The notes beneath the pieces were generated by a model. That model made no database searches. It was not told where the DNA came from and saw nothing but the letters and a program-made list of their open reading frames with translations. A program made the translations under genes and the position numbers. This document shows, one piece after another, positions 1-32,000 of a DNA stretch of 32,000 nucleotides. The stretch comes from Candidatus Saccharimonadota bacterium. GTDB taxonomy: Bacteria > Patescibacteriota > Gracilibacteria > BD1-5 > UBA6164. Within the stretch, counting starts at the first letter, position 1, and each line of letters starts with the position of its first letter. The stretch is taken from positions 1,380,001-1,412,000 of the forward strand of contig OZ245768.1 in the NCBI GenBank assembly GCA_965227835.1, read 5' to 3'.

Positions 1-162
1 GAGACATATGATATGACAGCAACAGCAATTTATATAAAGCTTATGTGGTGTTTAGCTCAAATAAATAAAAAAATAAAGGCTGGTGTTTTAAGTAGTGATG
101 ATTTGATTCCAGTAATAAGAGAAATGTTTAATACAAATTATGTTGGAGAAGTTAGTATTTAA
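1..162 (+). CDS. atpA: Probable F1 ATP synthase alpha subunit, C-terminal fragment (5' end outside window)
   Basis: Frame 1 is open from the window edge to TAA at 160-162 (…LIPVIREMFNTNYVGEVSI*). It lies 11 nt upstream of atpG in the usual atpA-atpG-atpD-atpC order. The assignment rests mainly on position. Confidence 0.5.
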   Translation, partial: ETYDMTATAIYIKLMWCLAQINKKIKAGVLSSDDLIPVIREMFNTNYVGEVSI

Positions 163-173
163 CTTATATTTAA

Positions 174-1082
174 ATGCCAAATTCAAAAGAAATAAAAAGA
201 AAAATATGAAGTATTAAAAATACTTGAAAGATCACAAAAGCTATGGAGCTTATTTCCACTGTAAAGATGAAAAAAGCTCAAGATTTAGCTGTATCTAAAA
301 GAGAATTTGTTTTAGAAATTTTAAAGATATTTATTAGGATAGAACCATTTTTGTGAGATATACCTTTCTTTAAAAAAACACAAAATAAAAAAACTCTAGC
401 TGTGATTATTACTTCAAATAAATGACTTTGTGGATGATATAATATAAACGTTTTTAAAGAGGTGAGTAAGTATTCTAAAAATAGCAATGAAATTATAGAA
501 TATATAACTCTAGGAAAGAAAGCCTCAAATTTCGTACTTAGGACTTGAAATAAACTTTTAGCTGATTTTTCAGAAACTTTTACAGACAATTTAGAAACTA
601 TTTTTTCTAGAAATATTTCTAGAATGATAAATGATGAGTTTGTGTCTTGAAAATACCAAAAAGTTGTTGTTTTTTATAACCATTTTATAAATACCATAAA
701 CCAAAAACCTATAAAAAGAGAATTTTTACCTATTGAATCAGGAGAAATAAAAAAATATCTTTTTTCAGTTTTAGATTGACACTATGATTTGGAAAAAGAG
801 CTTAGTAATATTAAAAGTTTATCTCCAGAAATAGAGCCTTGAATAGAAGATTTGGCTAGCCATATTATTCCTATGATACTTGATATGATGTTTTTTGATG
901 TACTTTTAGATGCAAAAGCAAGTGAACATAGCTCTAGGATGATTGCAATGAAAAATGCCAAGGATAATGCCAGTAAAATAGCTTCAGATTTGACTTTGGT
1001 ATACAACAAAGCAAGACAAGCTTCTATTACCAGAGAAGTCTCTGAAATTACGGCTGGTGTAGAATCTATGAAAGATAGTTAG
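174..1082 (+). CDS. atpG: F1 ATP synthase gamma subunit
   Basis: Code-25 translation gives [36 protein letters not shown]…, ITSNKGLCGGYN and …[17 protein letters not shown]…[13 protein letters not shown]. These are the typical gamma N- and C-terminal helices and the LCGG motif. Several in-frame TGA codons fall at Gly positions. The standard-code track shows only the last 76 aa. Confidence 0.9.
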
Positions 1083-1268
1083 ACTAAATTTGAGTGTAGC
1101 TTATTTTGGTTATTTTGATATGTTGTTAAGGAAAAACCGAAAAATTATTATTTTATCAAAATTAAAGAATTTTTCAGCCTCTCTTTAAATTATATGAGAG
1201 TTACTATTTACAATATATAAAAATGTCTTAGTATAAGAGTGTAAATTTATAATTTAATCTTTTTAACT

Positions 1269-1586
1269 ATGAAACTACCAACTTTTATGAAAATTGTTTT
1301 AAATATTATATTTTATATAGTATATGTTTTATTTTTAACAATAATTGTAAGCTTTGCCTTACCTCTTTTATTTAACTTTTTTATTGATAGTAATACAGGT
1401 ATATCTAGTATTATACAGCTTATAATTGCAATTTTTGTTCTTTTTGTAACTACAATTTATAGAAGATATTTTTATATGTCTGTTGATTTTGGAAGTTTAG
1501 CATTTTGAAAAACAGATAAACAAGATAGTGAGTCTAATTTTATGCAAGAAGAAGAACTGGATATTTTAATACCCAAGGAAAAGTAA
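1269..1586 (+). CDS. Small hypothetical membrane protein (about 105 aa, two hydrophobic segments)
   Basis: The ATG at 1269 opens a frame that reads through one TGA (1506-1508) to TAA at 1584-1586. There are two long hydrophobic stretches and an acidic tail. No family recognised. Confidence 0.55.
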
Positions 1587-1760
1587 TATAATTTTAAAAT
1601 TTTGAAAATAAGTTAACATTTAACAACCAAGCTAATTTTAAAATTACTTATTGCTTTGTTATTTAAGGAAACCCTGAAAAATTCATTTAAAAGAAAAACA
1701 ATTCTTTTTTGTTCCTAATAAAATTAAAAAATTTTTAAAAATTAATATAAATTAAAAAAT

Positions 1761-3152
<1,392 letters not shown>

Positions 3153-3176: not shown

Positions 3177-3608
3177 ATGGAACTACAAATACTTAGTTTT
3201 GATGGAAAAAAAATTGAAAATGACAATGTCTTGTCTATAACTTTGATGACTAAAACTTGAGAAATAACTGTCTTGGATAAGCATACTTCTTTGATTACTA
3301 GTGTAAAGCCTAGTACTATGTATTATGTTTATAGAGATGAAAACAACATGCAAAATAGAGATGATGTTGCAATATGAAATTGAGTTGTGGAAATAGCTGA
3401 TAGCAAGGTTAAGGTTATGGTTGATATGCTTGTTGATATTGAGGATTTGGACTTGGGACATCTAGAGAGAGCTAAAGTAGAAGCTCAAAAAAAGATGGAG
3501 GATTTAAGAGGTTCTAAGGATAAAATTGATATGGAACAGTTTATTGAAGCTGAAGATGCTTTACTTAAATCTATAGCTTCTTTGAAGTTGTATGATATGA
3601 AGAAGTAG
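3177..3608 (+). CDS. atpC: F1 ATP synthase epsilon subunit
   Basis: 143-aa product directly after atpD. The N-terminal beta-sandwich-like part (MELQILSFDGKKIEND…GEITVLDKHTSLITSVKPS) is followed by a C-terminal helical hairpin (LERAKVEAQKKMEDL…). Confidence 0.85.
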
Positions 3609-3711: not shown

Positions 3712-4686
3712 TTAATCCCTATAAAATATAGAACTAACATATAAATATCAAACCACAAAATATATAATAACTACAAAACTAAAATCTAGAGTTATAGCCA
3801 AATCAAATATAAAATGCAGAGACACCGTGAAAAATATTCATATTAAAAAGACTTTTAAATAGGGAAATATTTGAGGTCTTTTTTTGTATCACAAATAAGC
3901 CTTTGTAAAAAAGTATGCTATAATACTTGAACAAAATACATGTACCATTATAGAAAATACACTCCTAAAAAAATATATCTTTGTAAGTTCAAAGCTTATT
4001 CAAGAAGCATTATATAGACTATAAAAATACAAGATATTCTCTATAAAAGAAAATCATAGAGCTACAAATATGGCATAAAGCACTCAATCTTTTGTGCTTT
4101 TAATTTCTAAAATACCAGCTGAAATGAAGTTAAAATGTTTGGAAGATTCTTCTATAAAAGCCACTAAAACATAATAAAATATTATTAGCTTTAGAGTATT
4201 AAAAATAGTCTCTCAAAAATATATTTGGGAGAAACTAGAGATATTTTTGTTTAAAAAAACAAAATCTTTTGATATTAAATCCAAAGCATAAAAAAGAAGT
4301 GAAATTATACACACAAAAATTATAAAAATTAAGAAATTCCTAGAATAAAAAGCTAAAATTGACATCTTCTTTCTTAAAAATAGACTAAAAATAAAACTTA
4401 AAATTACAATTAAGCCTAAAAAAATACTCAAAGATAAACCAAAACTTAAAGTTCAAAAAAAACTTCAAATATCTTTTGCATACTGAAAGAAATTTATGCT
4501 TTCTATTTTTAAAAAACCTATTAATTCATCCATATAAAGTATAGGTACTACACTTAAAATACCAGAAACTATTCATAGAAAAAATCTATTTCTATTAAAC
4601 TTTTCTTCTGAAATACTTGAAAAAATATATGCCCAAAATAAAATAGGCATAAAACTTATGAAAGCTATTAAAACTATATTTAGCAT
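3712..4686 (-). CDS. PrsW-family intramembrane protease-like protein (polytopic membrane protein)
   Basis: Continuous 324-aa code-25 frame, checked codon by codon from 4215 down to the TAA at 3712-3714. It is multi-TM and carries AFIEESSKH, GFSFIENILY and a later H-rich helix (SIMVHVF…), the pattern typical of PrsW/CPBP-like proteases. Confidence 0.65.
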
Positions 4687-4830: not shown

Positions 4831-5478
4831 ATGCTAAAAAAAGATATAGATTTTTTCGCAAAGACACTCTATAATATGTACCCAAATGCAAAAACTGAAT
4901 TGGAATACTACAACAATTTTCAATTACTTATTGCTATAATTATGTCTGCTCAAACTACTGATAAGCAAGTTAATAAAGTCAATAAAACCTTTTTTAAAGA
5001 TCTAAAAGAACCTAAAGATGGTTTGAAGTTATGATTATTAGGATTAAAGAATCACATAAAAAGTATTTCTTTTTTTAACAACAAAGCAAACAATATATAC
5101 AAAACCTGTAAAATATTAGCTGAAAATAAAACTGATACAAAATTAGATAGCTTTGACACGATTGAAAAACTTTTAAAGCTACCTGGGGTTTGAATAAAAA
5201 CTGCCAAGGTATTTTTGGCAATAACCAAAGATTATCCTTATCTAGCAGTTGATACTCATGTTCACAGGGTATTAAATAGAGTTTGACTTGTAAATACAAA
5301 AACTCCCCTAGAAACTGATAAAAAGGCAGAAAAATTATTTAACAAACAAAATTTATGAAATATGCATCATGGGTTAATACTTTTTTGAAGGTATCACTGC
5401 ACTGCAACTAAAAAACCTAAATGTTACTCTTGTCCACTTTTAGAAAAATGCAGCTACAAAAACAAAAATTTAGTTTAA
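4831..5478 (+). CDS. nth: Endonuclease III (DNA glycosylase/AP lyase)
   Basis: SAQTTDKQVNKV…, helix-hairpin-helix LPGVGIKTAKVFL, VDTHVHRVLNRVG, and a C-terminal 4Fe-4S cluster motif CTATKKPKCYSCPLLEKC. In-frame TGA codons fall at Gly positions. Confidence 0.9.
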
Positions 5479-5513: not shown

Positions 5514-5858
5514 TTATTCATCTAATACATCTCTTCTCCTTACAAACTCATCATAATATACAGAATGTCTATCAATATATTCTTTTCACCAAGAACTTAT
5601 TAATGAATCTATTTTATCAGGTATTCTATTAATATTTTCGCTATCTTCCATGTCTATTATTAACTGTGATATATTCATATTATCTATAAAGAAACTTACT
5701 TGCATTTTTATCCGGAAATCTTTTTTGGTTATATATCTTGTGAAAAATCTATCATCACTTATTCAAATACAATATGAATCTATATAACTAAGGATCTTGT
5801 TTCCTATTTTATTAATTATAGAGTTTCTGTTTCAAACTATATAGCTAGTATTATCCAT
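5514..5858 (-). CDS. Hypothetical protein (114 aa)
   Basis: ATG at 5858 to TAA at 5514-5516, open with TGA=Gly (MDNTSYIVGNRNSIINKIG…VRRRDVLDE*). No motif recognised. Confidence 0.45.
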
Positions 5859-6804: not shown

Positions 6805-7941
6805 TTATATAACATTAACCATATTAAAAAAAGGTAACATTATTGCCATTATCAAAGTTCAAATAATTATTCAAACTATCATTATTACAACAGGTTCTAT
6901 AACACTAGAAAGATTTTTTGTAATATTATCTATCTCTTTATTAAATTTTTTAGATATTTTTTCAAGCAATTCTGCAAGCCTTCAGGTTTGTTCTCAAATT
7001 TTTACCACACTAGAAAGTTCTACTGGAAAATAAAAATTTGATTTTCAGTTCTTTATTTCATTTATTCACATAAGACAGCTAAGATTTTCACCTTTTCTGA
7101 CACCTTTAATAATATCTTTTAATTTCTTCTCATAACAATCATTTTCCAAAGCCCTTGAGCTTATTTCTAATGCCTTGTTTATAATAACTCATCTAGATAA
7201 AAGTACTCAAAGAGAATTTGTAAAAAGAGCCAAAGTTTTCTTTTTTATAAGTCAACCAAAAACAGGAATATGTAAAATCATCGTATCCCAATATATTTTT
7301 GTGTATTTACTTGTTTTAAAAATTTTTATACAAGCTATAAGAACTATAAATCACAAAATAATTAAATTTATATTATTTTGTATAAATTCAGAAGCATATA
7401 TTACATTGTTGGTAAGATCTGGAAGATTAACTTTGGCATCCTTATACATTCATTTTATCTTTGGTATTACATATATCATAAAAATAAATATCATAGAAAC
7501 TGATAGAAATACTATCAACATAGGATATATAAGTGCTCAAAGTATTTTTCATTTTAACTCCTTTGTCTTTTCTTCTTTTTCCTTTATGGTATCAATAGAC
7601 TCTGATAAATTACCCGTTAATTCTCACATTTCAATAATAGAAATATCAAAAGAATTAAAGGTTCTTTCGTGTATAGAAAATATATATTTAAGATCTTTAC
7701 CTGTTTTTAGTTTTTGTAATGTATCTTCTATAATTATCTTTATTTTTTTGTTTTTGGATTGGTGTCTCATTATTGTAAATGAGTTTATTATAGGTATACC
7801 ACTTCAAAGCAAATTTGATAACTGTTCCAAGAAAAAGATTTTTTCTTTTACACTTAGTTTTACTCAATTGTTTTTAAATATTTTTTTTAAGTTTATTTCC
7901 ATATTTTTTCAAAAAGAAACCATTTCTTTATATTCTAGCAT
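6805..7941 (-). CDS. pilC: Type II secretion / type IV pilus platform protein (GspF/PilC family)
   Basis: 378-aa code-25 frame. It has two repeats of the T2SS-F domain (…LEQLSNLLGSGIPIINSF…FDISIIEMGELTGNL… and …FTNSLGVLLSRGVIINKALEI…FPVELSSVVKIGEQTGRLAELL…) and three TM segments ending …MLPFFNMVNVI*. The 256-aa plus-strand ORF 7175-7945 in the track is antisense to it. Confidence 0.85.
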
Positions 7942-8007: not shown

Positions 8008-8442
8008 ATGAAAATATTTTGAATTTCGGATAAAAACCAAAATCCTAGTATGGATTTTGAAGAAGCTGAAAATGATATAAATGATAAAAGAATTGATGAT
8101 CTAGAAGGACAAATTGCTCTTGATATAATTGAAAATCAAGAGGAATTTTTGATTGTATCTCCTATTGCCTGAGTAAATTTAGAAAATATAGATATTTCTC
8201 TAGAAAGTGATGTTTTAACTATAAGTTGATTTAGAGAAGAACTTAGTGATATATATTGTGATAATAATATTACTAGAATATCTGAAGTTTTTTGGTGAAA
8301 ATTTAGCAGAAATATAATACTCCCTGATAATTTAGACCTAGACTCTATAAAAGCAGTTTTAGAGAAAAATATACTTATAATAAAAATATCCAAACTTAAA
8401 TTTAAATGACAAGCGATAAAAATAGAAGAAATAAATGAATAG
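8008..8442 (+). CDS. Small heat-shock protein, Hsp20/alpha-crystallin family
   Basis: …GQIALDIIENQEEFLIVSPIAGVNLENIDISLESDVLTISGFRE…FWGKFSRNIILPDNLDLDSIKAVLEKNILIIKISK… is the typical ACD pattern. Confidence 0.85.
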
Positions 8443-9355: not shown

Positions 9356-10033
9356 ATGTCTGATAACTACTATGATATACTAGGTGTTTCAAAAGATTCA
9401 AGTAGCGAAGAAATAAAAAAAGCATATAGAAAAAAAGCTATGCAATATCATCCAGATAGAGCTAAATGAGACAAAAAACAAGCAGAAAAAAAATTTAAAG
9501 ATTTAGGTGAAGCATACGAAGTTTTGTCTGATGAAAAAAAAAGACAACAATATGATATGTTTTGATCATCTAGACAAAATCCTTTTTGATGATGAAACTC
9601 TTATAACTCTAGTTGAACATCTTGATTTGAAGATATTTTTTCTAGTATGTCTTGATCATGAGGTTCTTTTTCTTGAAAAACATGATGATTTGATTTTAAT
9701 TTGGAAGATTTATTTTGATGATGAAAAAATAGACAATATGAAGATAAAAGAGAACCTATAATTTTGGATTTTGAAAAAACTTATGAAATTCCTATTTTTG
9801 ATTTTATACTGTGAAAAAACTTAGAAGTAAAAGGAGTTTACTGACAAAAATCTATGATAAAAATACCTACTTGAACTAAGCCCTGAACAAAAATGAGAGT
9901 AAAGGGCCTATGAAAGAAACAAGGATGAGAAGTTTGAAATTTGATTATAAAACTTGAGGCTAAAATGCCCAAAAATATATCTGATATGGATAAAAATATG
10001 CTTGAAAGAATAAGTGAATCTATATGATATTAA
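9356..10033 (+). CDS. DnaJ/CbpA-like J-domain co-chaperone lacking the zinc-finger domain
   Basis: J domain [31 protein letters not shown]…[21 protein letters not shown]. It is followed by a G/F-rich linker in which runs of Gly are encoded tga tga tga (9587-9595 and 9716-9724). A single C-terminal beta domain follows (…[26 protein letters not shown]…). No CxxCxGxG repeats. Confidence 0.85.
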
Positions 10034-10112: not shown

Positions 10113-10433
10113 TTAACATGAACATCAACTACCACATCAACCTGGGGCACATCATCAAGAAGAGCTTCAACCTCAAATTATGCTTACAAGCATTGATTTT
10201 ATTTCCTCTTGACTAGGAGTTTGTCATTCAAATATCATATCTTTAAATTCTATAGATTCTTCTTCTATTATCAAAGCAGGTTCTGCTTTGATTCAAAATT
10301 CTTTTTTATAATCAGAACTTTCACTGTTTTCCAATTCTATAAAATCATTTAAACCAAGTTCTTCAAGGCATAAATTTAATATATTCATCAACTCCTTTGT
10401 ATTTTCTTTTTTTCAATAAACTATTATTTTCAT
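10113..10433 (-). CDS. Thioredoxin-fold-like small protein lacking CxxC, with a Gly/Ser/Cys-rich C-terminal tail
   Basis: 106 aa: MKIIVYGKKENTKELMNILNLCLEELGL…AEPALIIEEE…QTPSQEEIKSMLVSII. This resembles the small MTH895/redox-active-disulfide-protein-2 type fold but without the active-site cysteines. The tail is GGGSSSGGCAPGGCGSGCSC*, with most tail Gly encoded by TGA. Confidence 0.55.
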
Positions 10434-10492
10434 ATTTTTATATAATTATTAAAATTAAAATTTTGTAATTATTGAAGTATTTCAGGGTTTCC

Positions 10493-11110
10493 TTAACTTT
10501 CAGTTTCATCTCATTTGCTTTCTTTGTCTTCTTCAGCCTCTGTGCTGTCTTCTATTTTTTCTGTTCTAGGTTTACTAGCTATTGCTATAACCTCGTCTTT
10601 AGAATTTGTTATCTGAATATTATCAGGCACCTTTACATCAGAAACTTTTATATTATCCTCCACTTTTGCTAATATAGATAAGTCTACATCTATATGATCA
10701 ATCAAATCTTCAGGTAAACATGATATCTCTAATTCTTTTTGTAGTTCTTCAAGGATTGCTCAATCCCTTACAGCTTCAGATTCTCAAATGAAATTTAGGT
10801 GAACTTTTGTATTAAGTTTTTCTCCTTTTGTTAATGCAAAAAAGTCTACATGTGTAAAGTTTCAAGTAACCGGATCTTTTTGAAAATCATGAACCAAAAC
10901 CTCTATTTCTTTTTTCCCAAATTTTAAATTAATTATATTTGATTCTCAAGTTTTTCTAAAAAGTTTTAAAAATTCAGAATAATCAATTATCAAACTTACA
11001 GCTTCCTGTTTTTTACCATAAACTACTCAAGGAAGCTTCATTTGCTTTCTTAAATGTTTACAGTTCTCATCTTTTGCTCTTATTTGAGCTTCAATACTAA
11101 AACTTGTCAT
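10493..11110 (-). CDS. rplY: Ribosomal protein L25 / general stress protein Ctc
   Basis: MTSFSIEAQIRAKDENCKHLRKQMKLPGVVYGKKQEAVSLIID…VLVHDFQKDPVTGNFTHVDF… with an acidic C-terminal extension. The track ORF 10511-10705 is an internal piece. Confidence 0.85.
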
Positions 11111-11401
11111 AACATTTATTTAAAATAATAAAAATAACTCTTTTAACCAATTTGGTTTTAATTTGAAAGAGATTTTATATAAAATATTAAAATATGCAAA
11201 AGTTTTCATTTTTTGTGTATTTTAAAAGGTAATATTAAATATTTTTATATCTATTTATATAAAAAGTATATATTGTTTTTTGACTTTTCTCACAAAACTA
11301 TTAGCCTGCTGTAAACAATAACTTTCAAGAAAAAATTAAAAAATCATCTCCTACTGCAATTTTTTCTTTTCAAAATATATTTAATAATTTCCAAATATTT
11401 T

Positions 11402-12265
11402 ATGAAAACTTCTATTTCTCATATCCCACAAGAAAATCAATTAGAGCTTTTGAAAGTAGTTGATTTAATCAGATGAGAATCAAAAAATAAATTAAAAGTT
11501 GAAATGATTATACTTTTTTGATCTTATGCTAGAGGAGAACAAGTTGTAAAAGATGTAGTTATGGAATGAAACAATAAATTGGAATATAGAAGTGATTTTG
11601 ATATTTTGGTTGTTACTAGAAAACCTTCTCAAGAGAGAAACCTAACTCTTTCTTATGAAATATCTAAAAAAATAAACCAAAGCAAAGAAATAAATACCCC
11701 AGTTAGTATTTTAATAGAAGATATATATCACATAAATGATAGATTAGGTGAAAATAGATATTTTTACTTAGATATTAAAAAGGAATGAATAATTTTATAT
11801 GATTCTTGAAAATGTATTCTTTGAGAAGCTAGAATATTAAGTGAGCAAGAGAAAATTGATTTACAAAAAGATGACTTTAATATGTGGTTTTTTTGATGAA
11901 AAAATTTTTTTAAATATTCAATAGATGCAATGGAGAAATGAAATTTAAATGATTCAGCTTTTTTACTCCATCAATCTGCAGAAAGGTATATATCAGCATT
12001 TTTACTAGTTTCAAATTGATATAAATCAAAAACACATGACCTACAAGTTTTATACAATAATATGATAAAACTTGATAAAGAATTTGAAACCTGGTTTGAT
12101 TTAGAAAATGAAAATAAATATTTTGTACTTTTGAAAAAAGCTTATGTAGATGCAAGATATTCCAAAAGTTATCAGATAAATAAGCAAGAAATCAAATATC
12201 TACATAAAAAAGTAGAGGTATTGGAAAGACTTGTTGAACAAAAATGCCTAAAAATTATCAATTAA
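11402..12265 (+). CDS. Fused minimal nucleotidyltransferase (MNT) plus HEPN domain protein
   Basis: N-terminal pol-beta-type NTase motif …ILFGSYARGEQ…SDFDILVV. The C-terminal helical HEPN-like domain has …FLLHQSAERYISAFLL… and …KKAYVDARYSKSY…. Track ORFs 11579-11788 and 12062-12265 are in the same frame. Confidence 0.75.
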
Positions 12266-12274
12266 CAAAAAATT

Positions 12275-12904
12275 ATGAAACCTAGAGAAAAACTTTTAAA
12301 ATATTGAGAGAAAAAATTGGAATGATGGGAATTAGTTGCTATTATATTATGATCTTGAATTAAATGACAAGATATATTCAAACTATCTAAGAAAACTTAC
12401 AAAATAATAAAAGAAAAAAGTGAAAATCTAAAAATGGAAAATCTTTTGGCAATAAAATGAATATGAAAAGTGAAGGCAATACAAATAATTTGAGCTTTTG
12501 AACTAGTAAATAGACATATTAACAAAGATTTTTTTTACATAAACTCTAGCAATGACATAATAGAATGTGTAAAAGATTACAGGGATAGAAAACAAGAATA
12601 TTTGCTCTGCATAACACTTGATTGAGCTAATAGATTTATAAAAAAAAGAATCATAACTATAGGTTTACTAAATGAAAGTTTGATACATCCAAGAGAGATA
12701 TTTTCTAGTGCTATAGAAGATAGAGCTAATAGCATAGTGGTTGTCCATAATCATCCTTCTTGAATGGCTGAACCATCAAAAGCTGATATAAATTCCACTA
12801 TAAGACTAAAAGAGGTTTCAAACACTATATGAATAAAACTATTAGATCATATAATAATAACAAAAAATAATTATTTTAGTTTTGCAGAAAATAACTTATT
12901 ATAA
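12275..12904 (+). CDS. radC: RadC-like JAB-domain protein
   Basis: N-terminal HhH-like region (…[21 protein letters not shown]…) and JAMM motif …[25 protein letters not shown]…. Confidence 0.85.
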
Positions 12905-12932
12905 TCCAATTTAATTTTTAAAAATATTTCTT

Positions 12933-16949: not shown

Positions 16950-18440
<1,491 letters not shown>

Positions 18441-18505: not shown

Positions 18506-18554
18506 CTTTGAATAAATAGAAATAGTTAGTAAATTTAGAATAATTAATAGTTTT

Positions 18555-21508
<2,954 letters not shown>

Positions 21509-21690
21509 TTAACAATTGTTTATTTTATTTGCTAGCTGTTTCTATTTATTCAATAATATTTTTAGTTTTTGTAAAATAATAAATTTTTTAAGTAATTTTT
21601 GAGAAATTTTAATACAAAAAACCTTTATTTTTTTAAGATAAACTTTCTATAACTTTTAGTTTAAATTTCAAAAAGATTTTGATGTTATTA

Positions 21691-21807
21691 TCTTGGTTGT
21701 TATAACGGTTGGGGTACACCTGTTCCCATCTCGAACACAGAAGTTAAGTCAACTAGTGCTTATGGTAGTGCATTTCGTAAATGTGCGAGAGTAGGTAGCA
21801 ATCAAGA
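21691..21807 (+). rRNA. rrf: 5S ribosomal RNA
   Basis: TCTTGGTTGTTATAACGGTTGGGGTACACCTGTTCCCATCTCGAACACAGAAGTTAAG…GAGAGTAGGTAGCAATCAAGA. The terminal helix pairs TCTTGGTTG with CAATCAAGA. Confidence 0.9.
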
Positions 21808-22116: not shown

Positions 22117-22192
22117 GCACGAGTAGCTCAGTTGGAAGAGCAGCGCCCTTCTAAGGCGAAGGTCACAGGTTCGAGCCCTGTCTCGTGTACCA
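22117..22192 (+). tRNA. tRNA-Arg (anticodon TCT), CCA encoded
   Basis: GCACGAGTAGCTCAGTTGGAAGAGC…CTTCTAA…GGTTCGAGCCCTGTCTCGTGTACCA. Confidence 0.9.
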
Positions 22193-22229
22193 TTTTAATT
22201 TGATAGTCTTATTTATTGATACTATATTT

Positions 22230-22306
22230 GGGTGATTAGCTCAGTTGGCGAGAGCATCTGCCTTACAAGCAGGGGGTCATAGGTTCGAATCCTATATCAC
22301 CCACCA
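22230..22306 (+). tRNA. tRNA-Val (anticodon TAC), CCA encoded
   Basis: GGGTGATTAGCTCAGTTGGCGAGAGC…CTTACAA…GGTTCGAATCCTATATCACCCACCA. Confidence 0.9.
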
Positions 22307-22447: not shown

Positions 22448-23630
22448 CCTGAATTAAACCCCGAAGTGCAATTTTTTAAATGAACTTAAAGAAGAAAATA
22501 TAGCATTAAGAAATTTTTTATTTTTGAGATTATAAAAAATTTTGTTATAATTCCAAATACAACATTAAGATTGTGAAAAGTGTGCTTGATTAGGGGAAAT
22601 AAATCAAAGTATTTCTCTAGGAGTATTTGCTAATATATCGCAAATACTTTTTATTTTTTCATCACTTACATAATCAAATATAGTTCATTTAGGAAAAAAT
22701 CTCCTGATAATCCTATTTAAATTCTCAACACTTCACTTCTGCCAAGAAGAATAAGGTTCACAAAAGTAAGTATCTATTCATATATCATTTAATAAATAAT
22801 GCTTAGCAAATTCCATTCAATTATCAAAAGTAACAGATTTAATTCATATATCATCTTTAACTCAAGCTATTAGATTAATTATATTTTCACTTGATTTATC
22901 TTTTATTTTAAAAATTTTAGGTAACCTAGTCTTTCTATCAACCAATGTAAGTATAGCTCATTTAAATCATTTTTTAGAAACAATTAAATCAGCTTCAATA
23001 TGTCATTTTTCTTCTCTGTTATTTATTGTTTCAGGTCTATTTTTAATACTAACTCTATTTTTAATTTTCACTCTTTCTGTTTGTTGTTTTTTCTTTCTAT
23101 AACCTTTATGTTTATATAATAATAGTTCTTTATATTTATTTCACATACCAGTTTCTAGCCAAGAATATATACTTGTATGGGAGATATGTTTCTTTTTATC
23201 TGTTTGAGTATTATTCCGTTTCTTAGCAATTGTTTTTGGGGACATTTGTATTTCTGTTATTGATAGTTGTTCTATTATGAAATTTTTCATATTAGTATTC
23301 ATATTTATCTTCATTGATTGAGTTTTTGTTAACCATCGTCTTTGATATGATTTGATTTCTGCTTCTAGTGCTAAATATACTTTTTTATTGTTTCATCGTT
23401 TTTTTACTGAATTTCTGTATATCTCTCTGCTTATTGTTGATTCTGATCTTTTTAGTATTGATGCTATATCTTTTTTCTTTAATCATTTATTTAAATGAAA
23501 TTCAATACTTTCTCTCTCTTGGAATATTAATTGTCAGTACATATCTTATTATATTAGAAAATAATGTTATTACCCTACGGGGAATACTATATTTTCTTCT
23601 CTTTTAATTGCACTTCATTTCTTACTTTGG
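22448..23630 (-). mobile_element. Intact IS30-family insertion sequence (about 1.18 kb)
   Basis: Single transposase ORF. Imperfect terminal inverted repeats share GAAGTGCAATT…AGAAGAAAATATAG (left 22463 onward; right, reverse complement, 23616 downward). GCCT occurs immediately outside both proposed ends (22444-22447 and 23631-23634), a possible target-site duplication. Boundaries are good to a few bp. Confidence 0.8.
22565..23542 (-). CDS. IS30-family DDE transposase (325 aa)
   Basis: Code-25 frame MYGQLIFQERESIEFHLNKGLKKKDIASILKRSESTISREIYRN… (HTH). Catalytic region …EEKGHIEADLIVSKKGFKGAILTLVDRKTR…SVTFDNGMEFAKH…FCEPYSSWQKGSVENLNRIIRRFFPKGT…LANTPREILGFISPNQ. It contains many in-frame TGA codons and is invisible in the standard-code track. 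Confidence 0.9.
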
Positions 23631-23675
23631 GCCTTTTTGAATACTATCAAATCGAATAAATCATGATAAATATAA

Positions 23676-25514
23676 ATGGCAATTTGAGAAATAAACATCA
23701 AGTGAGTAGTAAGTGATATCAAGAATACATCTGTGTATTATTCTGTTTTTGAATGAATTGTAAATGGTATTCATGCTTTTGAAAAATCATCAAAAGATAA
23801 ATGAAAAATTGATATTCAAGTTATTAGGAGTAATCAAACTAGATTATGAACATCAGAAGATGATTGACTAGAGGATATAGAATCTTTCATTATTTCCGAT
23901 AATTGAGTTTGATTCAATAGTGAAAACCAGAAATCTTTTCGAACATTTAAAAGTGACTATAAACTAGAAAGTCATTGAGGTAAATGATTTTGACGTTTTT
24001 TTTATCTAAAATTCTTTGAAAAAGTTAGTTTCGAAAGTGTTTATGAAGATGAATGAGAAAAAAAGAGAATCACTTTTTCTTTTGATATTAATGCAAATGA
24101 CATGATGTCTAATCCTGTCATCTCTGTAGTTGATAAAAATACTGAAACAGGCACAAAACTAAAATTACAAAGTTTAAAAAAGAAATATAGCACAAAACTT
24201 AATTCCCAAAGTAAGAAGATTCCAACTTTATGAAGAAAACTATTAGAACATTTATTAATGTACTTTGTAAATGACGATTTTAATTGTCCAGATATTGATA
24301 TTTTTGATTCTCATGATAGAGAGAATTTGAATAATATGATAGGAGAAAAAAAGGATATAAGTGTTATACACAATAATAAAATCTTCTTGAAGAAAAATGA
24401 AAAAAAAACCGAGGAAACAGAATTTTGATTTAAAATTTTTAAAGTGAAGTATTCAGTTGAGAGTAACACTATAAGCTTATGTGCACATAATAGAGTAGTA
24501 ATAGACGAAAATTTAGGTAAGTTCCTACCTGATTTTAACCAAAAATTAAAAGAAGTTTCAAATAAAAAAGAAAATAATTACGCAATTAAATGTTATATAT
24601 ACGGAAACTACCTTGATAATAATGTTGATACTGAGAGAGAAAGTTTCAACTTTATTAAGGATGATGAAATATTTGAGGGTGTAATTCTAGATAGAGATAT
24701 TTTCAATGCTGCTACGAAAGAAATAAAGAATTTATATCAGAACTTCTTAAAGTGTCAAAAAGAAATCAAAATAAATAATGTAAAGAGCTTTATAAACAAT
24801 AAAGCTCCTTGGTATAGTAGTTTATTTAAAAGCTTTGATTTTAATACTATTGATTCAAGCATATCTGAAGATATGTTGGATTCAAAATTTCATGAATTAA
24901 AATATACAAAAGAAAAGGAAACGAAACTAAAAACTAATACATTTGTAAAGAGTAGTGATTTCTCAAATAAAGATGAGATCAGAGATTTGGTATTATCTTT
25001 AGACGACCTTGTAAAAACTGATTTAGCTCATTATGTGGCAACAAGAAAATTTACACTTGATTTACTTGATAAATCTCTTGAATGGGATGAAAATACAAAG
25101 AAATATAAATCAGAAGATAGTCTACATACTATCATATTTCCAACTAAGAATGATACAGATACAGTAGATTACAAGGATCATAATATGTGGGTACTTGATG
25201 AAAAGTTAGCATTTTCTGACTATATATCATCTGATATTCCCTTAAATTCATGAAAATCCGAAAGAGGAGACGTGATTATTTTTGATAAAAAGATAGCTTT
25301 TCGATGAGAGAATAATAGTTCAAATCCTATTACTATATTTGAATTTAAAAAACCTTGAAGGGAAGATTTTGTAAATCCATCCTCACATGAAGACCCTATT
25401 CAGCAAATAATTAGGTATGCAAATAACATTGTTGATTGAAAATACAAAACTCCAAAGTGAAAAAATATTCAAGTTGCTGAAAATACACCCTTTTATTTCA
25501 ACACATCGGGATAA
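23676..25514 (+). pseudogene. 5' part (about 607 native codons) of a GHKL/Bergerat-fold ATPase with a C-terminal PD-(D/E)xK-like module, truncated by an IS200-type insertion
   Basis: Frame walked codon by codon from ATG 23676. N-box-like FEGIVNGIHA; G1 box ISDNGVGF (23898-23915 encodes DNGVGF); G2 box HGGKGFGRF (23976-23996 region). A long helical middle follows (the track ORF 24444-25253 is an internal piece). Then …HTIIFP…ERGDVIIFD…ITIFEFKKPGRED…QQIIRYANN…TPFY. The frame then runs into IS sequence and stops at TAA 25512-25514. Confidence 0.75.
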
Positions 25515-26189
25515 AAACCCCTATCTTTAGATAGTTAAGACACCGAAGGTGTAAGTGATAGAAATTGAATAAATGAGATGTGTTGTGACATAGGGTTTTA
25601 AACCCCGTTGCCTTCAGGCCGATTCTAAAGAAAAAAGTGTAAAAAATCAATAGAATAAATAAAATAGTGTTAAAAACTAACACTAGAGAGAATGAAATAC
25701 CAAAAAAGTAGTCATGCGACATATGATGTCAGATACCATATAGTATGGATAACAAAATACAGAAATCCATTCATGACAAAAGAGATACAAGATAGATTGG
25801 AAAAGATCATAAGATGAATAAGTAAAAAGCTATGAGTAATAATAATAAAGATATGAATGGAAGAAGATCATGTACATATGTATTGTAGGATACCGTTAAC
25901 TAAACCAATATCTACAATAGTATGACATATAAAGTGAGAAAGTTCTAAGGCAATAAAGAGGTATTTTTACAAAGAAATTAAGAGATGGTATTGGAAGACA
26001 TGAAATATATGGTGAGTATGATATTTTGTATCTAGTGTATGAGAGATAAATTGAGAAATAATATCTAATTATGTGGAACAACAGTGAGAAGAAGAGAATA
26101 AGATTGAAGAGATAGAGCTTTAAATTTCAGTACAAATAAAAGCCCCGTGCCTTCAGGCCGGGGTAGAAGAAAAGCTAAAACTTTTTTAC
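25497..26189 (+). mobile_element. IS200-type (IS200/IS605 family, tnpA only) insertion sequence, about 0.69 kb
   Basis: A Y1 transposase gene is flanked by subterminal hairpin-forming sequences: CCCCGTTGCCTTCAGGCCG at about 25604-25622 and CCCCGTGCCTTCAGGCCGGGG at about 26143-26163. Removing 25497-26189 rejoins the host reading frame (…PFY|GYVVC…). Ends uncertain by about 10 bp. Confidence 0.8.
25692..26123 (+). CDS. tnpA: IS200/IS605-family Y1 (HUH) transposase TnpA (143 aa)
   Basis: MKYQKSSHATYDVRYHIVWITKYRNPFMT…EEDHVHMYCRIP…GHIKGESSKAIK…WGVGYFVSSVGEINGEIISNYVEQQ: the HUH motif (HVHM) and the C-terminal Tyr-containing helix. At least ten in-frame TGA=Gly codons. Confidence 0.9.
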
Positions 26190-26436: not shown

Positions 26437-27057
26437 TTAACCAATTTCCTTAAAATAAAGCTTTTTTTCCAATATATACTCAACTATTTCTGGAATAAGA
26501 AATCTATTTAGTGCTTTTTGTAGATCTAGCTTATTTTTTCTTATCTCTTCTCTAACCATAGATGAAGAAATATCATTTTCACTTACCTGTTCTACCAGAT
26601 TAAAATTTTCTATATCTCTTGTATTAATAACATATCAAGGTCTTTCTATAATTATTTTTTTTAAAAACCTTTCTATATAAGAGTCTTTATTTCAAGACCA
26701 ATATTTTATGTCTGGTATTACATCAATTCAAAATATATGATAGGGAGAGTGTCCAAGTTTATCTTTGAAATATTCATCCACATTTACAGTATTTGTGTAT
26801 CAATTATTTTTTCATTCTAAAAAATGTGTATCTAGCTCTACATTTAGTCATTCATTTTTTAGATTTTCAAAAAATAATTCTATTAGCTTTAATTTATCAT
26901 TATCATTTATTCAATAGTTTTTATCTAACCTTTTTCAATCAGGTGTTAGTATTATTTTATCTATACAAGAATTATTTAATACTTTTTTTATTATGCTTTT
27001 ATGTCATAGATGAGGAGGGTTAAAAGCTCATCAGTATATTGCTATATTTGTTTTCAT
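26437..27057 (-). CDS. nadD: Nicotinate-nucleotide adenylyltransferase
   Basis: MKTNIAIYGGAFNPPHLGHKSII… ((H/T)xGH motif) and a C-terminal …ISSSMVREEI… (ISST-like motif); 206 aa. Confidence 0.88.
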
Positions 27058-27063
27058 ATTTTT

Positions 27064-27897
27064 TTATTTGGTTTTAAATCCTTGTTCTTCTAGTTCTCTG
27101 CTACTCCATATATTTAAATAACTTGTTGGTATTAAGAAAGTTATTTTCTCTTCATAACTTTTTACCTCTACACTAAATTCTTCTCACTTTGGAATATCTT
27201 CTATTTTTTCTCAATCACAATTTATTTGCATAGGATTAAGCCTTCAAACATTTTTTACTTCTATTAAATTATGACTAGGTACAAGAATTGACGTACTAGG
27301 ACAGTTGGAAGGTGCTTTTGGAGTTATTCCAATTAAATCAGTATTATGACGGATTATGGTTCATCCTAAGCTTTTATTGTATGCAGTAGATCATATTCAA
27401 GAGTATATAATAGCTCAGTCTCATCTTAATGATTTATTAAACTTTAAAGGTGAAATGAAACTTTGTGAGTCTAAATTTCTTAAATATTCGGTAACTTCTA
27501 TTAAAATGTCTACAGGTCTTCAACTATTTGCTCTTATATCTACTTCATTTACAGCTATAGTTTCTTTGGATCCACTTTTTGTATTTACAAAGATTTTTAA
27601 TATTTGTAACTTTTTTTCTACATATAGGCTTCAATCATTCACATATTCCTTTTCATTTAGTAAATATCATTTATTTCAAAAGTTTATTCACAAAAAAGGT
27701 AAACTCCTGCTATGATTTTCTTTTATTGCTCTTATCATTGTACCATCTCATCATAAAACTATAACTACATCTTTTTTTATAGAATCAATTATAGTTGCTA
27801 TATTTGCAGGTTCTAAAAAACTTCTTAATTCATTGTTTTTCTCAAAAGAATAATCATCGTAACATACAATGCTATTTCATATTTTCCTAGTTTCCAT
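27064..27897 (-). CDS. nadK: NAD+ kinase
   Basis: …VVIVLGGDGTMIRAIK… (GGDGT), …GINFGNKGYL…, …NEVDI…, …GDGAIIYSGIGSTAYNKSLGGTII…; 277 aa. Confidence 0.88.
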
Positions 27898-27925
27898 AAT
27901 TAAACAGATTAAATATAAACTTTAT

Positions 27926-28846
27926 TTACTCATATAATATAATATTTCTTATTAGATCTGACATTTCTAAAACTTTCATATTTGGTGTATTTTTAGCTCT
28001 TTCTATATTTGTTGGTATTGAGTCAGAGACAATTAACTCATCTACTTCTTGTGCCACTTTTTTATGAGAGTTTTCAGGGAATACTCAGTGAGGAATATAT
28101 ACTCTTACACTTTTTGCTCACTTTTCTCTTAGTTTATTAACTGCCTCTATTACTGTTCATCCTGTTTGAATTAGGTCGTCTATTATTAGAATATCTTTTC
28201 ATTCAGGATTTCACTCTTTTATCCATATCTTTCTTTTATCTCACTCTAATCTTCTTTTTTCACAAACTATTTTTTCAAAATCTTTAAATTGAGGATTAAA
28301 TCTCTTATATGCTCATTCATCTGGAAAAGCTATTTGTACATTTTCTTCAATTTCTTCTTTGATCAAATGCATAGTAGTGTGAAGTTCTGGATTTATTCTG
28401 TCTAAGTTGAAATAATTTCTTGTTCATAAATCGTGTATATCAAAAATATGTATAGAATTTTTTTTATCTCTTCCTGGTGGTATACTAGAAATTAAATCTG
28501 CAAAAATTTTAGCAGTTATTACTCTTCATCTTACATCTTCTTTTTCCATTGTTCAACAAGGAAAAAATGGCATTATTATACGAAGTTTATCAGCATTATT
28601 TGATACTATAGTTGATAATATAGATAAATGATCAAACATAGTTTTCCTTTCAGAAAAATCTCATATATATGTTACATCTTTGTGTTCTATATATTTTTCT
28701 GTTTCTTCTAACAAAAAATTAGGCCACTTATCTTTGAATAGATCCTTTTGGACTTTTCATATGTTTATACCTCTCTCTTTTCAAAAACATTTTGGTAATT
28801 CTTTAGAAATATGAGAAAATTTCTCATCTATTATAACTGTTTTCAT
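27926..28846 (-). CDS. prs: Ribose-phosphate diphosphokinase (PRPP synthetase) family protein
   Basis: …LRIIMPFFPCGTMEKED…, …IHIFDIHDLGTRNYF…, …IAFPDEGAYKRF…, and the PRPP loop …DILIIDDLIQTGGTVIEA…; 306 aa. Divergent N-terminus. Confidence 0.75.
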
Positions 28847-28854
28847 ATATTTTT

Positions 28855-30630
28855 TTATTGTTTTAAAATTAAATTTTTTAGTTTTTTATATTTTTCTCAA
28901 AAATAAACTGGGTTTTGGGCTTCTCTATATTCAAATCAAAAACTTGATTTACTTATAGTGAGTATTGGTGGAGACTGGACCCTTTTAAAATAGTTTATAT
29001 TTAATAGATTCCATATTTTTTCAATTTCTTCTATAAATTTATTTTCATTTTCAAAGTAACTGGATATTTCTTGGGGTATTCATAAAAATTCTTTTAGTTC
29101 TCATTTTAGATACATATCAAGTATATCTGCTGGTTCTTTTTTCTTTTCTATGAGTGCTTGGTTAAGTTTTGATGTAAATTCATAGTTGAATGGATCTCAA
29201 TTTCAAGATTCTACATCTTGTTTATCACTTAGTTCCGCACTTGGGACTATATCTATTATACCTTGTGGTATAAGTTCTCCATATTTTTTATTTATGTATT
29301 TTGAAAGTTCATATACTTGTGTTTTATATAAATCTCAAAGTACGCAGAATGCTCATGCTACATCTCAATATAGTGTTGCATATCATAGAGCTATTTCATC
29401 TTTATTTCCATTGTTTGTAAAAACGGCTCATATATTACTTGCCATATCTGCTAGTATTTGTCACCTTTCTCTGGCTTGTATATTTTCTATTTCAAAATCT
29501 GTGGGTGCTTTTCAGCTTGTTTGTGTTATTTGTTTTATTTTTAGATCTATTGATTCTTGTATTGGAAATATCTTATATTCTACTCAGAGTTTTTGGGCAC
29601 ATTCTTGAGCTAGGTTTTTTGTGGTTTTTGAATTAAACTTAGAGGGCATATTTATGGTAAAAACATTTTTGCTTCATAGTGCAATGGTACATAGTGCGGC
29701 ACTTAATGCACTGTCTATTCAACCACTTAGTCATATAACAACTTTTTCTTGAGATATATTTTTCATATACTCTCTTATGTAGTATATACTTGTTTCAAGT
29801 ATTTGCTCTAGCTCGTTTTTTTCTTCATCAATTGTGGCATTTTCTTCTTTTGTATAGTCCTTTATTCATTGCAGTTTTTTTCAGTTTTCATATATACTAC
29901 TTCCTCATTCAAATATAAATACATTTTTTCAGTTATTTTGTTGTCATATAGGATTTACATAGGCTAGCTTGCCTTTTCTGCTAGCTTTTTTTAATATCCT
30001 ATTTCTCATGTCAAATTTATTTAATCCAAATGGTGATGCTGATGGTACAGCTATTAAATCTGGGCTATGTTTTCTTGTTAGTTTTACAGGGTCTATATTG
30101 TAATCTCCATTTATATTCCATATATCTTCGCATATAAGTACAGACACTTTTGTTATAACTCAGTTTATTTCTATTTCTATTGGTTTGTAATACTGTTCTA
30201 GTGGTTTTTGTTCTTCTTTTGCCAAGGTTTGAAGAGAAGTAAAATATCTTTTGTCATCAAACATACGATAGTTTGGTAAAAGTGTTTTGTGTACTTTTCC
30301 TAGTAGTTTTCAGTTTTGGCTTATAAATGCTGTGTTGTATTTTCTTATACTCCCATCTTCATTTTTCTTTCTTTCGTCAATATCTATATTTCCCCATATT
30401 CAGGCTATCCCATTTTCATCTAATATTTGTATTATTCTCTGGTTTATCTCTCTGCACTCTTTTACAAAACTATCCCTTAACCATCTATCTCAGATCATAT
30501 ATCAGGGTATACACATTTCTGGTAGGATTAAAAGTCATCATTTTGGAGTTTTTTTTGCCATTTCTTCAACTCATTTTAGATTTCTTTCGGGATCTCATGC
30601 ATATACCTGCATTTGTCATAATTTTATCAT
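28855..30630 (-). CDS. nadE: Glutamine-dependent NAD+ synthetase (CN-hydrolase plus synthetase domains)
   Basis: N-terminal nitrilase-type domain (MIKLGQMQVYAGDPERNL…LPEMCIPGY…VLICEDIWN…). C-terminal N-type ATP-PPase domain (…VVIGLSGGIDSALSA…NKDEIALGYATLYGDVAG…VPSAEL…). The track ORF 29944-30147 is an internal piece, and the plus-strand ORFs 29186-29636 are antisense artefacts. Confidence 0.92.
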
Positions 30631-31709
30631 AGTCTTTGTATTATTATATTTTTAAAATCATTTGCCACTGTTTCTATTTCTTCAAAGTTTTCTAAGTTTT
30701 CTATGTAGTATCTTTCTGGCATTTCTCAACTTAAAGCTCAAACCATATTTCATACTATTGATCAATAGCTATCAGTATCTCATCATATGCTTACTGAATC
30801 TATTATTGCTTGAAAACTTTGTTCTCTTAAAAATATACAGTAGGTTATTGCCAGTGTTGTAGCTATTTGTCCGGATTTTTTTATATCGTCTCCCCATCAA
30901 AAATTTTCTAATATTTCATCATCACTTATTATAAGTTTTCATTTTTTTGAAAATTCTTTCATTTTCTCAAATATTTGTCTAATTTTTGCAAGTTCTTGTC
31001 ATTCCAAAGTGTCTTTTTCTGGAGCTGATTTTTTATCTGTCAATTCTTCGTAAGTTCTTATTTTTCTAGTCATATATTCTAAAAATTCTCACACATTTAT
31101 ATTTCAATTGCTATTTAGAATATATCTAAAACCTATATCATGTATAATGCTTGCCAGTTTTTGAGGGTAGCTGTTGTGTGTTAATCTGGTAAAATCAATG
31201 ATTTCTCTATTTGGTGCCTCCCAAAGTGTAAGAGGTGCTTGTTTCATCATAATTCCACATCACATAGAACTACTTTCTATACTTAATAGTTTGTTTATGT
31301 CTTTGTATTCTCTAAAGTGTTTTATAGCTTTTCTCGTAGCTCCTCAAAATCCATATGGAAATTTGTCATAACCTTGCATTGTTTTTTCCATAATATCATA
31401 TAAATCTATTGTCTTTTTTTCTGTAATGGATTTCATAACTGCCATAGTAAGAATTGTATCGTCTGATATTTTTCATACTTCTTTTGATGATAATTCTAAT
31501 CCAGCTTTTATGAAGTAAGTATTCCATCATGAAGGCAGGTAAAAATCTATTTTTGAAGAGCTTTTATGCAGAATGTCTTGTATTTCTTGTTTTGTTTTCG
31601 TTTCTACTGGTAATCATAGTGCATCTCATACTGCTCAGTTTATAAGTATTGCCGGTATTTTTTCTGCTTTTTTTAACTCAAAGTTTTTACTTCCTATTTT
31701 ATCTTTCAT
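30624..31709 (-). CDS. ADP-ribosylglycohydrolase (ARH/DraG) family protein
   Basis: …AILINGAVGDALGLPVE… near the N-terminus and …SVSIGGDTDSYGSIVGNMVGALSG… near the C-terminus, the two metal-binding signature regions of the family. 361 aa. It ends cta tga taa, overlapping the nadE ATG. Confidence 0.8.
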
Positions 31710-31729
31710 TTGATTTGGTGTTTAATGAT

Positions 31730-32000
31730 TTAAACTAAAACCTCATTTTTTTTCATTCAATTCACTCAAAAAATTCTTTTAAACCTTTCAACTCTATTTT
31801 CTTCTCCCATAGCTTTTTCTGGATTATCTGATAATTTTACAGCAGATTCTCATCCTGCTTGAGTAACTTTACATACTTGAGAGAAAGCTCTAAATCCAGG
31901 TATTTCTGATGCTATTCATTTACAATCATTTGTAGTCATAGTTCACATAGCTTGTGGTAATCTCATTATTCTACTTGATAATTCTCTTACATTTTGTACT
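31730..32000 (-). CDS. pncB: Nicotinate phosphoribosyltransferase, C-terminal fragment (5' end outside window)
   Basis: …AMGTMTTNDCKG…FSQVCKVTQAGGESAVKLSDNPEKAMGEENRVERFKRIF… parallels the PncB C-terminus (FGIGTxLTxD … KPVAKLSDSPGKT…). Only 89 codons are visible. Confidence 0.6.

Follow-up and report, generated by a model that had tools for sequence, protein, structure and literature searches.

UGA read as glycine, and CGG probably read as tryptophan, in a 32-kb chromosomal stretch of a Gracilibacteria/BD1-5 bacterium

The stretch of 32,000 nucleotides analyzed in this work (contig OZ245768.1 of the assembly GCA_965227835.1, positions 1,380,001 to 1,412,000; hereafter the window, numbered 1 to 32000) raises the question of which genetic code its genes are written in. 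The window belongs to the chromosome of an uncultured member of the Gracilibacteria/BD1-5 group, it has about 25% G+C in its coding regions, and it includes 26 complete genes that need the codon TGA to be read as sense, together with one ribosomal RNA (rRNA) operon and six transfer RNA (tRNA) genes. An earlier interpretation based on the letters alone (the sequence-only reading) proposed that the whole window is written in genetic code 25, in which TGA specifies glycine and only TAA and TAG terminate translation. The table-25 code has been known in Gracilibacteria/BD1-5 since 2013 (Rinke 2013, as cited in PMC8629427), and its proteomic confirmation was reported in 2014 for a BD1-5 bacterium, in which 97 peptides were unique to the glycine translation versus 3 for tryptophan (Hanke 2014, PMC4032931). 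In the survey of Shulgina and Eddy (2021, PMC8629427), UGA = glycine is listed for Absconditabacteria and Gracilibacteria, with Campbell 2013 and Rinke 2013 as the sources given there. From the comparisons presented below we conclude that in this genome UGA almost certainly has a sense meaning, glycine, in agreement with translation table 25 of NCBI; this is the correct recognition of a documented code, already known, and adds nothing new. The codon CGG, which appears to be read as tryptophan, is considered afterwards.

When the window is translated with the standard code (code 11), the longest open reading frame (ORF) has 274 amino acids and the ORFs of at least 100 amino acids add up to 2,276 amino acids; if TGA is taken as sense, the longest ORF reaches 635 amino acids and the summed length rises to 12,779, which agrees with the claim that the standard code shatters the genes. 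The 26 genes comprise 7,118 codons, including 326 TGA, 123 GGN and 37 TGG. In-frame TGA is present in all 26, represents 4.6% of the codons, and accounts for most of the glycine codons (326 of 449, 73%). The proposal that TAA and TAG are the sole terminators is also supported, given that 23 of these genes end with TAA, three with TAG and none with TGA, and the C-termini of GyrB, AtpD and AtpG coincide with the ends of their homologs or profiles. In this gene set the glycine content is 6.3% if TGA is counted and 1.7% if it is not, and tryptophan would reach 5.1% if TGA encoded this residue.

Since code 11 fragments the genes, this pattern alone could resemble a decayed genome, in which the in-frame TGA codons would be true stops that denote pseudogenes or assembly errors, or would be bypassed by programmed readthrough or by insertion of selenocysteine. 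We give practically no credence to this explanation: TGA is found in frame in every gene and at conserved glycines of essential genes (the Walker A motif of atpD and the ATPase domain of gyrB), at those columns 27 relatives, as well as an independent assembly, have either TGA or GGN, and TGA never closes a gene. Selenocysteine was rejected as a candidate, since a share of 4.6% of the codons is far beyond what it could explain.

The glycine motifs on which the sequence-only reading was founded were verified by reading the bases. The Walker A motif of AtpD (F1 beta subunit, 1761-3152, forward strand; 463 amino acids, 24 TGA) is spelled at 2208-2231 as ggt tga gca tga gta tga aaa acg, that is G-G-A-G-V-G-K-T, with the three TGA codons that had been pointed out. 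In gyrB (13771-15675, forward strand; 634 amino acids, 38 TGA, 15 GGN, 3 TGG, stop TAA) the three glycines of the motif at 13816-13866 are all TGA, as claimed. On the reverse strand, the GGDGT motif of the NAD kinase NadK (27739-27753) reads TGA TGA GAT GGT ACA, and the GGDTDS motif of the ADP-ribosylglycohydrolase (ARH; 30768-30785) reads TGA TGA GAT ACT GAT AGC. For the third motif of this group, SGGIDS of the NAD synthetase NadE (29710-29727, reverse strand, AGT GGT TGA ATA GAC AGT), the claim that it uses TGA applies to one of its two glycines. The WQKG motif of an IS30-family transposase (22733-22744, reverse strand) is written TGG CAG AAG TGA.

In the sequences used for the alignments, each TGA was represented by X in order not to bias the result towards glycine. 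The top 120 GyrB homologs in the databases come from Gracilibacteria and owe their translation to pipelines that apply either code 25 or code 4, and were unusable as independent evidence for glycine; the independent references were solved structures and the DNA of standard-code gyrB genes from GTDB species representatives. In the alignment of GyrB with the E. coli protein (7z9c_B), 30 of the 38 TGA positions are opposite glycine; the corresponding values are 19 of 24 for AtpD with the F1 beta subunit of Bacillus PS3 (8spw_D) and 14 of 29 aligned positions for NadE with 5kha_A, and TGA was opposite tryptophan in none of the three. The pooled result is glycine at 63 of 91 TGA positions and tryptophan at 0, hence neither the enrichment in tryptophan nor the random residues that had been named as contrary evidence were observed. 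With a background of 8% glycine, the probability of obtaining the 30 matches of GyrB by chance is 7e-26, which excludes this explanation.

The interchange of codons was examined in two sets of gyrB genes, 40 that use the standard code (mostly from Clostridia, 53-57% identity) and 27 usable genes from Gracilibacteria (74-83% identity). Of the 38 columns that have TGA in the window, 32 are majority glycine in the standard-code set, and 27 of these 32 are invariant. The statement that TGA falls exactly on invariant glycines therefore stands for most of these columns and fails for the remaining six, five of which are variable while the other, codon 43, is a tryptophan or aromatic column. In the Gracilibacteria set, the same 38 columns show TGA 580 times, GGN 414 times and TGG 27 times, all the TGG cases falling on codon 43; conversely, TGA appears 143 times at the columns where the window has GGN. 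From the fact that TGA and GGN swap at the same columns it follows that they are synonyms. The sum of TGA and GGN per gyrB is 55-62 in almost all Gracilibacteria and 53 in the window, and standard-code gyrB genes have 50-60 glycine codons. A clade-wide analysis of codon partners was carried out with 37 related loci plus the window, filtered for antisense ORFs and for ORFs inside rRNA genes. In this analysis, the partners of 2,501 TGA sites were TGA in 61% and glycine in 31% of the cases, and 175 of the 189 TGA sites of the window with relatives have TGA or glycine as the majority partner, a single one, gyrB codon 43, having tryptophan. When the window was compared with L081, an independently assembled close relative (98% GyrB amino-acid identity), TGA took part in 13 differences, and 8 of them were changes between TGA and GGA or GGG.

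Re-calling the genes with TGA as sense, a check suggested by the sequence-only reading, also allowed the two possible residues to be compared with Pfam. For the 10 proteins evaluated, the glycine translation scored better than the tryptophan translation in all, with totals of about 1,798 and about 1,388 bits (a difference of about 410). The scores were 252.7 versus 234.2 bits for AtpG, the F1 gamma subunit (174-1082, forward strand; 302 amino acids, 9 TGA, stop TAG), which matches positions 2-285 of the 285 of the ATP-synt profile; 155.6 versus 126.8 for a platform protein of the type II secretion/type IV pilus family (T2SSF/PilC; 6805-7941, reverse strand; 17 TGA); and 113.4 versus 63.5 for ARH (30624-31709, reverse strand; 19 TGA). 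The NAD_kinase domains of NadK (27064-27897, reverse strand; 16 TGA) are detected with glycine and entirely lost with tryptophan. As far as TGA is concerned, the assignment of the whole window to code 25 is upheld by these 26 full-length genes with their 326 in-frame TGA codons.

These results bear directly on code 4, in which UGA encodes tryptophan as occurs in Mycoplasmatales and several insect endosymbionts. Any sense reading of TGA restores long ORFs, and an automatic pipeline did choose code 4 for this genome: the copies of its GyrB and IS30 transposase in a public protein collection (P0001, 13771-15675, and P0242, 22565-23542) have tryptophan at every TGA codon, 38 in the former and 14 in the latter. 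Against this choice, tryptophan is absent from the 91 positions aligned with solved standard-code proteins, TGA interchanges with GGN in the relatives and meets TGG at one GyrB column only, the tryptophan translation costs about 410 bits of Pfam score, and it implies the tryptophan content of 5.1% mentioned above. In addition, TGG keeps its usual meaning, for which the sequence-only reading had cited the W of the WQKG motif: at the three GyrB columns with TGG in the window, the relatives have TGG in 78 of 81 cases and TGA in none, and the partners of 277 TGG sites in the clade-wide analysis are tryptophan in 90% and TGA in 1.2% of the cases. Given that TGG remains tryptophan and does not interchange with TGA, code 4 is excluded by this evidence, and overall we consider it extremely improbable. 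At standard tryptophan positions, UGG alone encodes tryptophan.

Several observations weigh against the assignment of UGA to glycine. The share of glycine in NadE is only 14 of 29, a lower value that we attribute to the distance of the reference 5kha_A. The scans for tRNA genes revealed no UCA or CCG anticodon among the six tRNAs of the window or in 40 related loci, whole genomes being beyond the scope of these scans, and the decoding machinery described below for this genome is inferred. The remaining point is gyrB codon 43 (13897-13899, forward strand), which is TGA in the window and TGG in all 27 relatives, and adjoins the catalytic glutamate of the ATPase domain. This TGA is not a sequencing error, since the separate assembly of L081 has the same TGA. 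In the 40 standard-code GyrB proteins the column has Tyr in 36 cases, Val in 2, and Ile and Gln in one each, and in E. coli it is Phe; a variable column makes a real change from tryptophan to glycine plausible, and the simplest reading of codon 43 is a TGG-to-TGA substitution at a position that tolerates Val, Ile and Gln.

Codon 43 could also be explained if UGA were ambiguous, that is, translated mostly as glycine with a functionally relevant share of tryptophan inserted by a near-cognate tRNA-Trp(CCA). The presence of TGA in the window and in L081 at a position where all the other 27 relatives have TGG would fit this idea, low-level mistranslation was suggested by Hanke 2014 (PMC4032931) from one high-stringency peptide with tryptophan at UGA versus 40 with glycine, and a potential ambiguity between UGA and UGG is mentioned by Shulgina and Eddy (PMC8629427). 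Nonetheless, this is one codon among 326, none of the other 188 TGA sites of the window with relatives has tryptophan as its majority partner, and the column varies in standard-code GyrB; for these reasons we regard ambiguous decoding to a functionally relevant extent as very unlikely, and low-level reading of UGA as tryptophan as conceivable.

Judging from what has been published on this clade, the mechanism behind this code would involve three elements. UGA would be read by a tRNA-Gly whose anticodon is UCA; release factor 2 would have been lost, so that UGA would no longer be recognized as a stop; and the AT mutation pressure reflected in a G+C content of about 25% would then favor TGA over GGN. 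It has been reported that reassigned genomes carry tRNA-Gly(UCA), and that two non-reassigned Gracilibacteria carry release factor 2 (PMC8629427). A single release factor was encountered in the sequences analyzed; it belongs to the relative L089 and is of the release factor 1 type, with the PET tripeptide and the GGQ motif.

The organism is within the BD1-5/Gracilibacteria group, judging from its sequence affinities, as had been deduced from the code itself. The best named matches of GyrB are Candidatus Gracilibacteria, the top matches having 74-83% identity, and the 28 nearest genome loci are labelled as Gracilibacteria, Patescibacteria group or 'Peribacteria' (one of them as Sulfurimonas); those analyzed have 5-43 in-frame TGA codons in gyrB. 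The rRNA operon (16951-21807, forward strand) consists of the 16S (16951-18440), 23S (18562-21503) and 5S (21692-21807) genes; the 16S gene had been placed at 16950-18440, and it is indeed present, with its start at 16951 in our analysis. With respect to those Gracilibacteria loci, the 16S and 23S genes of the window have 88-91.5% and 84.5-88% identity, respectively. Since the 16S identity is at most 91.5%, the organism is not close to the species-representative genomes that were fetched. The related loci share with the window a conserved gene order, namely gyrB, tRNA Asn-Ser-Ser-Met, rRNA operon, tRNA Arg-Val. In the window, the tRNA genes Asn(GTT), Ser(TGA), Ser(GCT) and Met(CAT) are located at 16223-16662 and those for Arg(TCT) and Val(TAC) at 22117-22306, all on the forward strand; the tRNAs lie outside the rRNA operon, four upstream and two downstream, as in the related loci, and the spacer between the 16S and 23S genes (18441-18561) has about 120 bases and no tRNA gene. 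A preprint of 2026 states that the orders BD1-5 and Absconditabacterales, which use table 25, are assigned by GTDB to the class JAEDAM01.

By GyrB, the nearest complete genome (83% identity) is that of the locus L001 (CP060226.1, 10001-11887), labelled 'Candidatus Peribacteria'. This locus has a G+C content of 41%, encodes arginine by CGT, and includes only 5 TGA versus 57 GGN in its gyrB; the scarcity of TGA at this G+C content indicates that the use of the reassigned codon tracks the G+C content within the clade. The NCBI titles Peribacteria and Sulfurimonas on loci recoded with TGA look like taxonomic mislabels.

The second codon of interest in the window is CGG. Some Gracilibacteria are predicted to read CGG as tryptophan, and both CGA and CGG are predicted to have this meaning in Absconditabacteria (Shulgina and Eddy 2021, PMC8629427). 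The CGN codons were examined in the window following this prediction, which was obtained with Codetta. The arginine-type codons of the window are 198 AGA, 37 AGG, 5 CGT, 4 CGA, 3 CGG and no CGC. The codon CGG is thus rare in these 32 kb, and in two of the two informative cases it lies on a tryptophan column.

The first case is codon 57 (13101-13103, forward strand) of an HD-domain hydrolase (12933-13499, forward strand; 8 TGA), located in a peptide that reads VLHDIDRDYVEK when CGG is translated as arginine. This is a tryptophan or aromatic column: the Gracilibacteria relatives show W in 69 cases and an apparent R in 29, and distant standard-code homologs have Y in 14, I in 2 and W in 1, within the motif LHDLDYE. 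A metagenome scan with the HD protein recovered only 5 loci. When the DNA was inspected, the apparent R was CGG in four of the four loci checked (L081 and L087-L089), and W was TGG in L082-L085. The second case is codon 109 (23216-23218, reverse strand) of the IS30-family transposase (22565-23542, reverse strand; 14 TGA), a tryptophan column where the relatives have W in 107 cases, R in 12 and G in none; when the DNA is considered, L092 and L093 have TGG at this codon and L091 has CGG. In the same protein family, 39 of 119 relatives show R in place of the W of the WQKG motif, and in L091, the only locus inspected at the nucleotide level for this motif, the codon was CGG. The third CGG (5712-5714, reverse strand) is in a hypothetical protein of 114 amino acids with no available homologs.

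The relatives show the same tendency. The window has TGG at codon 272 of ARH, where L081 has CGG, and the two CGG codons present among the 27 Gracilibacteria gyrB genes are both on columns that are otherwise all TGG. In the clade-wide analysis, the partners of CGG sites were CGG in 43%, W in 26%, F in 15% and R in 6.5% of the cases. For the other arginine codons, AGA, AGG, CGT and CGA, the share of R among the partners ranges from 72 to 85%, with 85% for AGA and 72% for CGA, the latter having 24% K in addition. The CGA codons 49 and 69 of the IS30 transposase are on columns with K52/R47 and R79/C36, respectively.

The competing interpretation is that the code is exactly table 25, that CGG is still arginine, and that the CGG codons on tryptophan columns are real Trp-to-Arg substitutions. 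TGG and CGG differ by a single base, the window has only three CGG codons, and CGG = arginine is retained in some Gracilibacteria (Shulgina and Eddy 2021, PMC8629427). The case for tryptophan in this genome is in fact built on these three codons, two of them informative, together with a single change observed in L081, and the relative L092 has CGG at a conserved arginine of the IS30 transposase, which denotes a variable meaning of CGG in this clade and agrees with the variation published for Gracilibacteria. These points must be counted in favor of arginine. Yet CGG is almost never found on arginine columns in these relatives, as the partner frequencies show in comparison with those of AGA, AGG, CGT and CGA; standard-code homologs have an aromatic residue at the HD column and 69 relatives have tryptophan there, every apparent R traced to DNA being CGG; and the WQKG tryptophan is replaced by an apparent R in the 39 IS30 relatives mentioned above. 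Persistence of arginine at CGG is accordingly an unlikely, though not negligible, explanation, and CGG = tryptophan is likely to apply in this genome, on the few codons available. Table 25 alone is probably incomplete for this genome, given that CGG behaves here as tryptophan, and from the codon comparisons the code of this lineage seems to go beyond it, with good but not overwhelming probability, by combining UGA = glycine with CGG = tryptophan while the neighboring CGA stays arginine.

In such a code, CGG would be read as tryptophan presumably by a tRNA with the anticodon CCG derived from tRNA-Trp, and CGA would remain arginine. If this is true, the split between CGA and CGG would imply either a tRNA-Arg(UCG) with restricted wobble beside a tryptophan-type tRNA(CCG), or ambiguous decoding of CGG. 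It has been pointed out that this split is difficult where a tRNA(UCG) reads both codons, which was suggested as the reason why SR1 (Absconditabacteria) reassigned both together (Shulgina and Eddy, PMC8629427). In another related locus, L090 (GCA_964523785.1, 2039-2971), the gene for a homolog of the HD protein lacks TGA and has CGA at its two conserved tryptophan columns, and a tRNA-synt_2 fragment is fused to it or lies beside it; this locus may come from a lineage of the SR1 type, with CGA = tryptophan.

Three known systems resemble that of the window to different degrees. The table-25 code of Gracilibacteria/BD1-5 (Rinke 2013, as cited in PMC8629427; Hanke 2014, PMC4032931) shares with it the in-frame UGA at conserved glycines, UGG as tryptophan, UAA and UAG as stops, and a low G+C content; these bacteria also provide the nearest proteins and rRNA and the common gyrB-tRNA-rRNA order. 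There is no difference regarding UGA; in contrast, table 25 keeps CGG as arginine whereas in the window this codon behaves as tryptophan. The code of Absconditabacteria (Campbell 2013, as cited in PMC8629427) is similar in UGA = glycine and, as predicted by Shulgina and Eddy (2021, PMC8629427), in the interchange of CGG with TGG at tryptophan columns, but there the prediction of tryptophan covers CGA as well as CGG whereas CGA in the window looks like arginine, and the nearest named relatives of the window are Gracilibacteria and not SR1. The code of table 4 has in common a sense UGA in an AT-rich reduced genome, with a presumed loss of release factor 2; however, the amino acid is tryptophan in that code and glycine in the window.

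The remaining genes of the window also depend on TGA. Downstream of atpG and atpD is atpC (F1 epsilon subunit, 3177-3608, forward strand; 3 TGA; Pfam ATP-synt_DE_N), followed by genes encoding a PrsW-family membrane protease (3712-4686, reverse; 10 TGA), an endonuclease III-like glycosylase of the HhH-GPD family identified with Pfam (4831-5478, forward; 5 TGA), a chaperone of the Hsp20 family (8008-8442, forward; 5 TGA, stop TAG) and a DnaJ-like protein (9356-10033, forward; 23 TGA). In the DnaJ-like protein the linker rich in glycine and phenylalanine is nearly all TGA, with runs of TGA TGA TGA, and under code 11 it resembles a dense cluster of stop codons. The region that precedes the HD hydrolase and gyrB encodes the ribosomal protein L25/Ctc (10493-11110, reverse; 6 TGA), a nucleotidyltransferase-HEPN protein (11402-12265, forward; 10 TGA) and a RadC-like protein with a JAB domain (12275-12904, forward; 11 TGA). 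After the rRNA operon and the IS30 transposase there is a gene for a protein of 612 amino acids with a weak match to GHKL ATPases (HATPase_c; 23676-25514, forward; 19 TGA), flanked by two transposase genes, the second of which encodes an IS200-like Y1 transposase (TnpA; 25692-26123, forward; 11 TGA; Pfam Y1_Tnp, 115 bits). These three genes form a possible mobile island (22565-26123), which has the rRNA operon and the tRNA genes on one side and the cluster for NAD biosynthesis on the other.

The NAD cluster is on the reverse strand and, besides NAD kinase and ARH, includes a nadD-like nucleotidyltransferase recognized by Pfam (26437-27057; 11 TGA), whose motif GGAFNPPHLGH is written with TGA, a protein similar to ribose-phosphate pyrophosphokinase (phosphoribosyl pyrophosphate synthetase; 27926-28846; 13 TGA), and the glutamine-dependent NAD synthetase NadE, aligned above with 5kha_A (28855-30630; 32 TGA). 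The ORF of ARH finishes (30624-30632) with TGA followed at once by TAA, and its last residue may or may not be glycine; when taken from stop to stop, this ORF overlaps that of nadE by 28 bases. The gene arrangement of L081 (1-11905) differs from that of the window (10113-15675 and 26437-31709). In L081 the NAD cluster (ARH, nadE, prs, nadK, nadD) is directly upstream of a thioredoxin-like gene and the L25 gene, on the opposite strand relative to gyrB; a DDE transposase is present at the junction of the cluster, and neither tRNA genes nor an rRNA operon follow gyrB. This difference indicates a recent rearrangement between the two genomes, bounded by insertion sequence elements.

From a practical point of view, gene calling on this sequence must use table 25. 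The warning that standard gene calls are unreliable here is well founded, both because code 11 shatters the genes and because the public GyrB and IS30 entries carry tryptophan at every TGA. A translation with table 4 makes 4.6% of the residues wrong and turns most conserved glycines, such as those of Walker A and of the GGDGT-type motifs, into tryptophan, and for this reason it weakens homology searches, to the point that the NAD kinase becomes undetectable by Pfam. Many related database entries mix W and G at TGA columns, and as a result the clustering and the Pfam annotation of the clade are degraded.

To our knowledge, CGG = tryptophan is so far a computational prediction that has never been confirmed at the protein level. 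What this window adds, besides the warning about code 4 in the databases, is codon-level support from several genes and their relatives for CGG = tryptophan together with CGA = arginine in part of the Gracilibacteria. As the meaning of CGG appears to differ between related lineages, this clade would be a natural system in which to study the reassignment of a sense codon in progress.

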